Assembly: GCA_019244185.1 (NCBI GenBank)
Contig: JAFATB010000005.1
Coordinates: 1 to 64,000 of the forward strand
Source of the DNA: Acidobacteriota bacterium
Lineage (GTDB): Bacteria; Acidobacteriota; Thermoanaerobaculia; Gp7-AA8
Reading direction: 5' to 3'
Length of the DNA stretch: 64,000 nucleotides
The translations under genes and the position numbers were made by a program. How positions within the stretch are numbered: position 1 is the first letter of the stretch; every line of letters starts with the position of its first letter. Shown piece after piece: positions 15,128-24,011 of the stretch. Below the pieces are notes generated by a model. The model saw only the letters and a list, made by a program, of their open reading frames with translations, searched no databases and had not been told where the DNA came from.

Positions 15128-17011
15128 CTACTCGGCTTTCTGCACGAACTGCATGCTCGGGTCGTTGGTCGTGTTGTCCGTCGTCGCGCCGTAGACGAAT
15201 GCACTGCCGCGGGTGACCGTGATGGCGATGCTCTCGCCGCCGGTGAGCGTGTAGTCGAGGAACATCGCCGAGCCGGGCTGCGTGAAGAACGTCGGATCGT
15301 AGCTCTGCGTCGTGGTCTGCACGACGACGCCGTTCTTGTCGCGCACGACGATGGCCATGTCCACGCCCTGCTCGAGCGTGCGCACGCCGATGTTGAGGCG
15401 GAAGTGCGTGAAGTCGGGCGGCGCGATCAGCGTCGCCGTCTCACCGGTCTGCAGCGCGTCTTCGGGACGAAGCTGCGGCTCGGTGAGACCGGTCGTGCCG
15501 TTCGCGCCCGCGTCATTGAAGACACGCACGGCGCTGATCGGCAGCAGCGAGCCGGCATCGGAGACGATCTCGCCCGTGCCGAGGCCGCTGAGGCCTCCCA
15601 TCGCGGGCAGGAGGTCGTCCCACTGAAGCGTCTGACCCGGTTCGAGCGCGTACGCGAGGAACGGATCGTTGTCGCTGCCGCTCGCGCCAGCGGGGTGATA
15701 GACGATGCGGCCGGAGATCGCGGACGCGTGCGGGTTGTGGATCTGCACGCCGGTGCGGAAGAACGAGCCGAAGTTGCCGGGCGTCGAGCCAATGACGGCG
15801 AGGATGCGCTTCGCGGACGGCGTGATCGCGGGTGCGTTGATGAAGACGGAGACGACAGGCGACGCCGCGGACGTGAGGTCGCACGTGCCGGCGCGATTGC
15901 GCGCGCGGACGCGGTAGTAGTAGCGCGTGTCGGTCGTGACCGCGTGCATGAACGACGCGAGCGCTTCCGCGGTCGTCGTCGTGGTCACCGACGTGAAGTC
16001 GGCGTCGGTCGACTCGTCGATGACGTACTCGGTGGCTTGATCGATCGGCAGCCACGAGAGCGTGTACGCCGCGCCGCTGTCGACGCTCGTCGCGGGACCG
16101 GCCGGCTGCGGCGCGGCGGGCGTGGCGCAGTTCGACGTCGGCTCCTGCACGCGCACCGTGGCGGTGTCGCTCGCGCCGCCCGCGCTCTGCGGAAGCGTCG
16201 CGGTGATCGTCGTGGTGCCGGGTGCGACCGGCGATGCGGTAAAGCTGACCGACTTCACGCCCGCGGGGATGTTCACGGTCGCGGGCACGGTGGCGGCGGA
16301 AGGGTTCGACGACGTCAGCGTCACGGTCGTCGACGACGTGAGCGCGGCGCTCAGCTTGAGCGTGATCATCCCGCCACTGCTGCCGGTGAGGATGTTCTGG
16401 TTCGACGGCGTCAGCGACACCGTCGGAAAGCTGACGTTGATCGCGCCGTTGACGAGGTGCAGCTGGCCGTTTCCTACGGTTTCTTTAGTAGCCGCGCTGC
16501 CGCCCGCGTCGGTGAGCTGCGTGAGCGACGAATCGAGCGTCAGCGTGATCGTCGAGCCGGGCGTCGCCGACGCGGAGAGCGTCACGACGAGATGCGCGAC
16601 CTGATTGCCCGGGGCGGCGGCGTTCAGCGTGAACGGAATGGGATTCGTCGACTCCTGAAACGTGTCGAGGAGCGACACGGAGTTCGACGTGGCCGGCGTG
16701 AACTCGGAGGTCGGCGTGAGGTTCGCCGTGATGCCCGCGCGTGAGAACGAGATCGACGAGATCGCGCTCGTTGGCGCGTACGTCACCTTGATGCTGTACG
16801 ACTGGATCTTCGAGCCGGCGGGACGATCCATGCCCAGCGGCGTGCCGGAGACGTCGCGGATGTACACCGGGACGTCGACCGTCGAGCCGCTCGCGGAGAC
16901 GGTACCGACCGTCACCACGTCCTGGGCGCGGACCGCGCTCGCGGATACCACCGCGAGCGCGGCAAGAAAGAACGAGCGAACTACTACGAGGAACCGGGGC
17001 TTTGTCATCAC
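15128..17011 (-). CDS. Secreted multidomain protein: signal peptide, cohesin-like domain, Ig-like domain, Fn3-like domain, about 230-aa C-terminal beta domain
   Basis: Signal peptide ending AVRA; QDVVTVGTVSASGSTVDVPVYIRD...LVNGAINV (cohesin-like); LSW..YYYRVRARN (Fn3-like); ends GATTDNTTNDPSMQF. Confidence 0.75.
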   Translation of the reverse strand: MMTKPRFLVVVRSFFLAALAVVSASAVRAQDVVTVGTVSASGSTVDVPVYIRDVSGTPLGMDRPAGSKIQSYSIKVTYAPTSAISSISFSRAGITANLTPTSEFTPATSNSVSLLDTFQESTNPIPFTLNAAAPGNQVAHLVVTLSASATPGSTITLTLDSSLTQLTDAGGSAATKETVGNGQLHLVNGAINVSFPTVSLTPSNQNILTGSSGGMITLKLSAALTSSTTVTLTSSNPSAATVPATVNIPAGVKSVSFTASPVAPGTTTITATLPQSAGGASDTATVRVQEPTSNCATPAAPQPAGPATSVDSGAAYTLSWLPIDQATEYVIDESTDADFTSVTTTTTAEALASFMHAVTTDTRYYYRVRARNRAGTCDLTSAASPVVSVFINAPAITPSAKRILAVIGSTPGNFGSFFRTGVQIHNPHASAISGRIVYHPAGASGSDNDPFLAYALEPGQTLQWDDLLPAMGGLSGLGTGEIVSDAGSLLPISAVRVFNDAGANGTTGLTEPQLRPEDALQTGETATLIAPPDFTHFRLNIGVRTLEQGVDMAIVVRDKNGVVVQTTTQSYDPTFFTQPGSAMFLDYTLTGGESIAITVTRGSAFVYGATTDNTTNDPSMQFVQKAE

Positions 17012-17041
17012 CGTACCTGGGGCAAACCGGGTGGAAGCGAA

Positions 17042-23700: not shown

Positions 23701-24011
23701 GCGTGCGCGAGCTCGCGCCACAGACGGCTCTGGCATTCGATGACGGGCGAAGCCTCCATCATCGAACGATGCGCCGTGCGCCATTCTTCGAATGTCACGA
23801 GCGGATCGACCGTCATCGAGCGAACGGCGGCGACCATCGTCTGCGTGAGAACGGCGTCGCAACCCGGAACCTCGATGTCGTCGTCCATCACCACGGGATG
23901 GAGCAGCGACACCATCCCGCGATCCTCTTCGGCGAACGCGGTCGTGCCGACGACGAAGCACAACAGTACGGCGAACCATGCGGCAAATCGTTTCATCACT
24001 GGACCCTTCAT
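17748..24011 (-). CDS. Giant secreted Ser/Thr-rich protein (2087 aa): Asp-box propeller, Fn3-like and carboxypeptidase-regulatory-like domains, Ig/PKD-like repeats, IPT/TIG, dockerin-like and C-terminal cohesin-like domains
   Basis: Signal peptide ending AFA; six SxD/NGGxTW-type Asp boxes; [14 protein letters not shown]..VTFGG (IPT); duplicated DANGDxxxDPxDIFYxVNYLF. Confidence 0.85.
   Translation of the reverse strand: [2087 protein letters not shown]
18981..20411 (-). repeat. Intragenic tandem repeats (240/243 bp; five near-identical units plus one diverged) encoding Ig-like domains
   Basis: Recurring [25 protein letters not shown]; unit starts at about 20186, 19943, 19703, 19460 and 19220. 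Confidence 0.92.

Follow-up and report, generated by a model that had tools for sequence, protein, structure and literature searches.

Cohesin-dockerin docking is best known from Gram-positive cellulosomes, which are anchored through SLH or sortase signals, and it has become a workhorse of synthetic biology. A dockerin repeat spans about 22 residues, with a 12-residue Ca loop that carries D or N at positions 1, 3, 5, 9, and 12 and is followed by a helix. In Clostridium perfringens, cohesin modules of GH33 and GH84 enzymes serve enzyme-enzyme assembly and not cellulose degradation, and Peer et al. (2009, FEMS Microbiol Lett 291:1) reportedly surveyed non-cellulosomal cohesin-dockerin modules, which sometimes occur within one protein. 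Surface display has drawn on the cohesin-dockerin pair of Archaeoglobus fulgidus as a functioning binder, according to a review (PMC12484212). Here, we analyze a three-gene cassette on contig JAFATB010000005.1 of an Acidobacteriota bacterium of the class Thermoanaerobaculia (assembly GCA_019244185.1); the whole stretch analyzed, positions 1 to 64,000 of that contig, is referred to as the window. Within the Acidobacteriota, Thermoanaerobaculia is an abundant class of soils and sediments with hardly any cultured members. We favor, with moderate confidence, a reading in which cohesin-dockerin docking is the organizing principle of this cassette: the dockerin of a giant protein would plug into a cohesin-fold module of a shared family, and a small protein with an IPTL-CTERM signal would tether the assembly to the envelope. 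The cassette itself is conserved in the Thermoanaerobaculia, specific to that lineage, and not a cellulosome.

The cassette comprises three co-oriented genes, separated by gaps of 25 and 30 nt in the open reading frames (ORFs) and translations of the window:
17748-24011, minus strand: P0001, the giant, 2087 amino acids (aa), called from its ORF and translation, with a GC content at third codon positions (GC3) of 0.93
17042-17722, minus strand: P0002, 226 aa, with a signal peptide, one cohesin-fold module, and an IPTL-CTERM anchor
15128-17011, minus strand: P0003, 627 aa, with a signal peptide, a cohesin-fold module, Big_2-like and Fn3-like domains, and a C-terminal domain of ~230 aa

The GC3 of the three ORFs is 0.85-0.93, and the GC content of the window is 63-71%. 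All three products begin with a signal-peptide-like N terminus, as read by eye from the translations with no predictor, which agrees with an initial sequence-only reading of the locus as closely spaced genes for secreted proteins. Together they hold one dockerin and three cohesin-fold modules, one module per protein, and P0001 alone has both kinds. The same reading had proposed a complete docking kit of anchored cohesin, adaptor cohesin, and dockerin-bearing stalk. The anchored cohesin and the dockerin-bearing giant were borne out, but P0003 is no adaptor in the cellulosome sense: Pfam and a double-F-hand regular expression (regex) found no dockerin in it, and it has no membrane anchor. Pfam results for the three proteins likewise include no cellulase, other glycoside hydrolase, or carbohydrate-binding module (CBM) family, as had been noted from the sequence.

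Relative to a cellulosome, the cassette is without a multi-cohesin scaffoldin, cellulase, or CBM and has one cohesin-fold module per protein. It shares with the type I pairs of clostridial cellulosomes (4uyp, 6kgc, 2vn5, and 1ohz) a dockerin with a duplicated F-hand that matches Pfam Dockerin_1. Unlike those pairs, its modules are invisible to the Pfam Cohesin profile, its host is a diderm acidobacterium, its anchor is an IPTL-CTERM signal, and in the giant a cohesin directly follows the dockerin. The C. perfringens complexes (2vo8 on GH33; 2jh2 and 2o4e on GH84) are related by fold, as those cohesins are among the fold matches obtained here, but they belong to a Gram-positive host, have other partner modules, and include neither an anchored single-cohesin protein nor a dockerin-cohesin tandem. 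Like the non-cellulosomal modules exemplified by A. fulgidus (2xdh), the cassette places a cohesin and a dockerin outside cellulolytic clostridia. It differs from the known examples in its Pfam-negative subfamily, three-gene layout, IPTL-CTERM anchor, variable-head stalks, and neighboring two-component system. Our literature searches returned nothing joining Thermoanaerobaculia and dockerin; for cohesin, dockerin, and Acidobacteria together, none of the titles or abstracts concerned the cassette, and the matches listed for non-cellulosomal cohesin-dockerin were all clostridial or engineered systems. We found no literature on the cassette, which had been put forward as the best candidate for an undescribed system in the window; non-cellulosomal pairs outside the clostridia were already known. 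What is new here is a hidden cohesin subfamily, a cassette of giant, anchor, and third protein, an IPTL-CTERM anchor, a portable dockerin-cohesin tandem, and exchangeable heads.

The dockerin of the giant scores above its Pfam cut-off:
18288-18458, minus strand: Dockerin_1 with two F-hand repeats, residues 1852-1908 of P0001; Pfam 27.3 bits for the protein and 32.3 bits in a six-frame genome scan (cut-off, 22.9)

The duplicated motif occupies residues 1853-1909 (nt 18285-18455), inside the span of 18267-18458 first reported for it, and regex recovers it as the only double F-hand in the six frames of the window. Its repeats start 36 residues apart and consist of a 12-residue loop followed by IFYLVNYLF and a 12-residue loop followed by IFYVVNYLF. 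Read directly, Ca-ligand positions 1, 3, 5, 9, and 12 are D/N/D/D/D in both loops. This near-identity of the two repeats recalls dual-binding-mode dockerins, a concept in line with the title of the 2vn5 entry. An AlphaFold2 (AF2) model contains two helices (H18-30 and H54-66), and a profile of the A2 alignment, which holds 48 orthologous segments of dockerin plus tail, picks up type I dockerins among PDB entries, with 4dh2_B and 4fl4_A scoring best (E, 0.0013). Mean pairwise identity among these orthologues is 72% for the dockerin, 45% for the C-terminal module of the giant, and 31% for the linker, so that the dockerin is the best-conserved part of the tail. By motif and profile, P0001 carries a bona fide Dockerin_1 (PF00404), as first proposed.

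The three cohesin-fold modules are located as follows:
17135-17626, minus strand: module of P0002, residues 33-196; AF2 predicted local distance difference test (pLDDT) 87.1, predicted template modeling score (pTM) 0.73
16418-16927, minus strand: module of P0003, residues 29-198; profile match with an E value of 2.8e-78
17796-18209, minus strand: divergent C-terminal cohesin-fold module of the giant, residues ~1935-2072, directly after the dockerin; assigned by hhalign, AF2, and Foldseek

The N-terminal domains of P0002 and P0003 (~165 aa) share 51% identity, and the family profile matches P0002 with an E value of 2.2e-104. The common domain noticed in the two smaller proteins is real and far beyond chance. 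We aligned 35 P0002 homologues drawn from the top matches (A1) as the basis of the AF2 model and of a hidden Markov model (HMM). The tail of A2 aligned to the A1 profile with an hhalign probability of 99.1% (E, 1.7e-18; 148 columns), which brings the module of the giant into the same family.

Structural comparison placed the modeled modules among cohesins. Foldseek searches of the PDB with the P0002 module gave 81 matches at E<=0.001, and those listed were all cohesins, led by 6kgc_A (E, 4.5e-8; template modeling score [TM], 0.75 normalized by target). VIA-align, a Foldseek-independent aligner run against 48,161 representative chains, returned cohesins in all 20 best rows (Z, 10.1-15.7). The type I cohesin 4uyp_A superposed best, with a Z of 15.7, a root mean square deviation of 2.5 A, and 139 of 144 residues aligned. 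The first unrelated row had a Z of 8.1 and was followed by pilins and adhesins (pilins, Z ~7-8). The Archaeoglobus cohesin 2xdh was recovered by both methods (Foldseek E, 1.6e-6; VIA-align Z, 12.3). For the giant, a 243-residue AF2 model of the dockerin plus C-terminal module reached a pLDDT of 89.2 and a pTM of 0.86, with a low-confidence linker. Cohesins filled the top Foldseek ranks for the C-terminal module (best, 6kgf_C; E, 8.3e-6), and the first non-cohesin among the matches listed was 1exg (CBM2), at rank 44. All three modules are thus predicted to adopt the nine-stranded cohesin jelly-roll and not a generic or unrelated Ig fold, P0003 by virtue of its identity to P0002. The unrelated Ig fold that had been named at the outset as refuting the proposal was therefore not borne out. 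Sequence profiles searched against the PDB gave just two matches, both cohesins and both sub-significant (E, ~0.55-0.65).

P0002 ends in a candidate anchor:
17054-17116, minus strand: IPTL-CTERM sorting signal of P0002; TIGR04174 22.2 bits (cut-off, 20.5), 25.0 bits in the genome scan

This signal is the sole profile match of P0002 in the Pfam and NCBIfam scans, and the corresponding Pfam family, PF18203, scores 20.2 bits, slightly below its cut-off of 20.8. The tail (...APTLSTWALGLLAAALAVAALRLKF) has a PTLS motif, a hydrophobic helix, and a basic end. P203 does not vary among the 35 homologues, and L205, W208, and R223 are each at least 90% conserved. P0002 is accordingly predicted to carry a membrane or cell-surface sorting signal. 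Across the genome, eight IPTL-CTERM signals pass the cut-off, and the exosortase family is matched once (PF09721; 45 bits; a 176-aa frame on contig 10). We found no earlier connection between IPTL-CTERM and cohesins in the literature. The same tripartite IPTL-CTERM signal is predicted at the C terminus of mela_00855, a small secreted protein (~312 aa) of another diderm, Methylomirabilis lanthanidiphila, and an S-layer protein localized by antibodies. The available part of that report (PMC8671808) mentions no cohesin or dockerin, and the likeness to P0002 drawn here concerns the sorting signal.

Relatives of P0002 number 806 at E<=1e-3 in a 90%-clustered protein database. The few that are named are Acidobacteriota/Thermoanaerobaculia proteins from metagenome-assembled genomes (MAGs), annotated as hypothetical or IPTL-CTERM, which fits the non-clostridial setting proposed at the outset. 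A search of 1.84 billion proteins with A3, a profile of 51 modules, returned 451 cluster representatives (50% identity) at E<=1e-3, 337 at E<=1e-10, and 153 at E<=1e-30. All three modules here are Pfam negative, and the 451 clusters represent a large cohesin subfamily that goes entirely undetected by standard profiles. At E<=1e-5, the module is present in 37 of 201 Thermoanaerobaculia genomes, a tally that includes one unpublished genome (G175), and in 28 of 48 genomes of the window's own family.

For gene order, we scanned one genome per species, picked 56 loci via the cohesin-like gene, and called genes from six-frame ORFs with the A1 HMM and the double-F-hand regex. Thermoanaerobaculia or Acidobacteriota MAGs account for 54 of the 56 loci, and the remaining 2 come from MAGs labeled Gammaproteobacteria. 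Short-type segments numbered 50, and for 44 of them the upstream sequence extended for 900 nt or more. The short cohesin-like gene lies directly downstream of a double-F-hand ORF in 39 of these 44, with the F-hands 154-189 residues before the ORF end. The five misses are L031 twice (a single regex motif), L033 (whose dockerin ORF stops ~500 nt upstream of the short gene), L015 (a long-type gene in split form), and L027 (none). The module of the short anchored protein is also the better conserved, with a mean identity of 66% in A1, which was drawn from top matches, against 45% for the giant's own module. L027, a Rhodanobacteraceae MAG, has a short-type gene with no dockerin upstream, and in L059, a Gammaproteobacteria MAG, the module directly follows a dockerin in a 1079-aa protein; the module on these two Gammaproteobacteria-binned contigs could reflect gene transfer or mis-binning. 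Two giants stand in tandem at L005, L016, L031, L041, and L048. The complete genome G055 has three short-type genes 6-8 kb apart within ~15 kb, followed by a long-type gene (G055:C1 1781201-1802738), which suggests that three or four giants are encoded there as a tandem array.

Ahead of its dockerin, the giant consists of a variable head and a shared stalk:
22152-23624, minus strand: variable N-terminal head, a BNR/Asp-box sialidase-like beta-propeller, residues ~130-620; a lead in the window copy
21606-21815, minus strand: CarboxypepD_reg-like domain at the start of the conserved stalk, residues 733-802; Pfam 40.6 bits (cut-off, 32.3)
18732-20444, minus strand: Ig-like stalk of five Ig_7 stretches plus a PKD-like domain, residues ~1190-1760; Ig_7 51.2 bits
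18471-18713, minus strand: IPT/TIG domain, residues 1767-1847; Pfam 54.2 bits

The full order is signal peptide, BNR/Asp-box head, Fn3-like domain (PDB match; E, 5e-4), CarboxypepD_reg, ~380 aa without assignment, Ig_7/PKD repeats, TIG, dockerin, and cohesin-fold module. The K319L-like_PKD match at residues 1680-1759 scores 24.5 bits and falls short of the cut-off (27). The five Ig_7 repeats (~80 aa each; window 18900-20100) are near-identical in protein sequence, and their number may be prone to assembly error. The Pfam scan of P0001 found nothing before residue 731, and the BNR/sialidase-like assignment of the head is a lead. It draws on five Asp boxes (S-x-D/N-x-G-x-x-W/F) between residues 200 and 533, a weak phmmer match to the GH33 structure 4fj6 in the PDB (E, 0.014), and an Atlas lead (score, 0.86; BNR on 19% of cluster members). 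Such a head would be a further likeness to the C. perfringens GH33 sialidase.

BLASTP against 37 related giants found the stalk, dockerin, and C-terminal module of P0001 to be common to them and its ~620 N-terminal residues in only two, L024 and L038. Both of these match BNR_2 (46.9 bits for L024, with a cut-off of 31.4 given, and 27.8 bits for L038). Pfam scans of 33 giants identified other heads, which, with BNR_2, set the family apart from cellulosomes: Peptidase_M36 in L010 (310 bits), Kelch/glyoxal-oxidase-like propellers in L036 and L042, Calx-beta in L009, and LTD in L005 and L006. Heads of 25 of the 33 had no Pfam match, the only domain recognized there being a CarboxypepD_reg after the head. 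CarboxypepD_reg is present in 27 of the 33. Heads that vary on a constant stalk, dockerin, and cohesin fit a display scaffold.

Dockerins and modules of this kind are also linked beyond the cassette. The same genome holds a second, sequence-divergent pair on the plus strand (L001 4650-8347, equivalent to G000:C10 ~152649-156346). A 736-aa FG-GAP propeller protein there ends in a dockerin followed by 10 residues (Pfam 20.7 bits for the protein; genome scan, 27.1). The gene that follows starts in overlap with its stop and encodes a 496-aa protein composed of a cohesin-like module at the beginning, a PKD-like domain, and a C-terminal domain that terminates with ...VTGYFK. In another organism, P0198 is a fusion of this FG-GAP pair, with 39% identity over residues 24-732 and 57% over residues 747-1208. 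We also ran Pfam on 34 proteins chosen from the best 150 family representatives for being at least 700 aa long or regex positive. Dockerin_1 occurs in 14 of the 34, over the cut-off in 12. A dockerin is directly followed by the module in the unrelated large secreted proteins P0124, P0129, P0132, P0136, P0261, L055, L056, and L059, and P0157 and P0158 combine the module, a dockerin, a Pfam-positive cohesin, and a type IX secretion system (T9SS) tail. The dockerin-cohesin tandem looks like a portable supermodule. In L055 (5813-11977) and L056 (5837-11989), proteins of ~2050 aa, the dockerin and module lie mid-protein (residues ~1307-1576), with ~500 residues after them, and P0136, of similar layout, has RHS repeats. 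We considered whether L055 and L056 join a giant to the 627-aa protein and decided against this reading, as the alignment was limited to the dockerin and cohesin parts.

In the mechanism that we propose, the cassette proteins would be exported by Sec, and the Ca-binding dockerin of the giant would plug into a cohesin-fold module of the family. Docking onto the IPTL-CTERM protein P0002 would keep the stalk with its head on the cell surface, so that an exchangeable N-terminal head, here possibly BNR/sialidase-like, would be displayed on a long stalk. The C-terminal cohesin of the giant could cap its own dockerin in cis or take the dockerin of a second giant to form chains, and P0003 would be a further single cohesin module on a soluble multidomain protein. 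Support for binding is indirect and comes from gene linkage, fusions with dockerins, and the pTM of 0.86 for the single-chain model, a value which, given the floppy linker, argues for a confidently predicted dockerin-module contact, in cis or between copies. A complex prediction for the P0002 module (A1 residues 30-197) and the dockerin (A2 residues 1-74) gave scores of 0.21 and 0.19, under the 0.32 at which a verdict is given, and counts neither for nor against binding. An unlikely extension of this mechanism is that giants with different heads, such as sialidase-like, metallopeptidase, and Kelch oxidase-like ones, polymerize head-to-tail, dockerin into cohesin, as daisy-chained surface fibers rooted on the IPTL-CTERM cohesin, with P0003 as an alternative root. 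It would amount to a self-scaffolding, cellulosome-like enzyme or adhesin polymer in a diderm with no dedicated scaffoldin, built with a cohesin subfamily and an anchor type that had gone unrecognized, and the tandem giant arrays at L005, L016, L031, L041, L048, and G055 would encode heteropolymers.

Several points weigh against the docking reading. We infer the binding of dockerin to module, the identity of the partner module, and the surface location. A single dockerin faces three candidate sockets, and AF2 points to the giant's own module and not to the anchored protein. Pfam Cohesin (PF00963) gave no match at E<=0.1 in P0001, P0002, or P0003, and identity to solved cohesins is 8-21%, so that a conserved dockerin-binding face cannot be assumed. 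The three modules therefore lie outside PF00963 by sequence profile though they are cohesins in predicted fold, and the original cohesin assignment stands for the modeled jelly-roll and not for the Pfam family. Four proteins in the genome bear a dockerin, of which two, a glucose/sorbosone-dehydrogenase-like (GSDH-like) protein and a second FG-GAP protein, have no cohesin-like neighbor, and dockerin-like modules are widespread without known cohesin partners. In only 26 of 48 cases does the short gene have the 620-aa type after it, which makes the P0003 type no obligate member. Each of the 48 dockerin ORFs with 700 nt or more of downstream sequence precedes a cohesin-like gene, a count biased by the ascertainment of the loci. 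Nor does this reading account for the passage of a 2087-aa protein across the outer membrane.

The dockerin and the cohesin that follows it might instead close on each other as an intramolecular C-terminal knob, a structural or secretion unit, leaving the P0002 and P0003 modules to bind a glycan, the envelope, or another protein with no intermolecular assembly. We consider this somewhat unlikely. It draws on the pTM of 0.86 obtained with the dockerin and its own module in one chain, on a linker of only ~25 residues, and on the portability of the tandem among unrelated RHS-repeat, Sortilin/BNR, and FG-GAP proteins. However, a monomer AF2 model cannot separate cis from homo-oligomeric trans contacts. 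The dockerin of the FG-GAP pair ends its protein and the cohesin-like module is only in the next gene, where contact could be intermolecular only, and the short anchored protein is both linked to dockerin giants (39 of 44) and more conserved than the module of the giant (66% versus 45%).

A shared beta-sandwich that binds carbohydrate or matrix and merely resembles a cohesin would agree with the missing Pfam Cohesin match, with CBM and pilin jelly-rolls lower in the fold lists (1exg at rank 44; pilins at Z ~7-8), and with the commonness of partnerless dockerins, two of the four in this genome being without a cohesin-like neighbor. The dockerin would then be a Ca-stabilized linker and the three proteins independent, co-regulated adhesins or enzymes. 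The 20 best rows are all cohesins, with a gap in Z from 10.1 to 8.1, and neither the near-obligate linkage nor the dockerin fusions would be explained, so we judge this improbable. More doubtful still is a role for P0002 as a major subunit of a surface layer or matrix, delivered by an exosortase-type route and decorated by the giant and P0003. The small size (~312 aa) and predicted IPTL-CTERM of the S-layer protein from M. lanthanidiphila (PMC8671808) would fit, as would the eight IPTL-CTERM matches and the 45-bit exosortase-family match in the genome and the abundance and conservation of the short protein family. A single 165-aa cohesin module gives no sign of lattice formation, though, and such a layer overlaps with the docking reading in that the giant could still dock onto it via its dockerin.

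If docking between dockerin and module is real, Pfam-based cohesin surveys underestimate such systems, and orthogonal, naturally diversified cohesin-dockerin pairs become available, at least two divergent ones in this genome. It would also provide a concrete model for the tethering of 2000-residue surface proteins by diderm bacteria. The cassette may be a main route by which Thermoanaerobaculia expose large enzymes or adhesins.

Two further genes of this genome carry modules of the same kinds. The GSDH-like protein is a 501-aa propeller (L002 5518-7023, minus strand; G000:C6) with its dockerin at the end (21.7 bits for the protein, 25.2 in the genome scan). The genome-wide PF00963 scan had a single match, which lies on a different contig in the C-terminal end of an 886-aa secretin (residues 774-848; 21.2 bits for the protein, 24.2 in the genome scan). 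This gene (L004 4525-7185, equivalent to G000:C26 ~9525-12185, minus strand) encodes Secretin (140 bits), Secretin_N, and STN/FecR_C domains, and its neighbors are genes for an N-methyl (pilin-like) and a TSP_3-repeat protein. Proteins with a dockerin could also dock to such a cohesin on an outer-membrane secretin.

Regulatory genes identified by Pfam lie upstream of the giant on the same strand and also include a hybrid kinase and a BTAD regulator:
24008-24442, minus strand: stand-alone receiver, whose stop overlaps the first ATG of the giant
24530-25159, minus strand: LuxR-type response regulator
25156-26862, minus strand: HAMP/HisKA_3 histidine kinase

In 15 related loci, for which 24 chosen ORFs of 70 upstream candidates were surveyed, HisKA_3 kinases recur in 7, LuxR regulators in 5, and receivers in 3. 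The adjacent two-component system probably controls expression of the cassette. A promoter scan of 14600-25400 returned 0 promoter-like sites. Terminator-like sites there number 10 (5.0 +/- 2.6 expected), most of them in repeat-coding DNA on the non-coding strand and hence uninformative; opposite-strand hairpins at 19543, 19781, and 20024 mirror the Ig_7 repeat DNA. The five sequencing runs listed as carrying the stretch are all DNA metagenomes, three of them possibly from the source sample, with no RNA run among them. Downstream of the cassette, the plus strand encodes ordinary neighbors:
8993-13950, plus strand: three Proton_antipo_M proteins (NuoL/M/N-like)
13964-14629, plus strand: Rex-like redox-sensing repressor
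14643-15092, plus strand: OsmC-like protein

Beyond its cohesin-fold module, P0003 has two further parts:
within 15128-17011, minus strand: Fn3-like domain, matching titin 8q6t_I (E, 8.8e-6)
15128-15830, minus strand: C-terminal domain, residues ~395-627, ~230 aa, with no family; a lead from an Atlas structure search

Big_2, below its threshold, is the sole Pfam result for P0003. In the Atlas structure search, the C-terminal domain resembles the C-terminal parts of many different secreted proteins of Acidobacteriota (TM, 0.60-0.73 by query), from clusters with Vgb_lyase/Reg_prop, Peptidase_M36, CHRD, and multihaem cytochrome proteins. As a lead from these predicted structures, this C-terminal domain may serve in sorting or attachment and be specific to the lineage.

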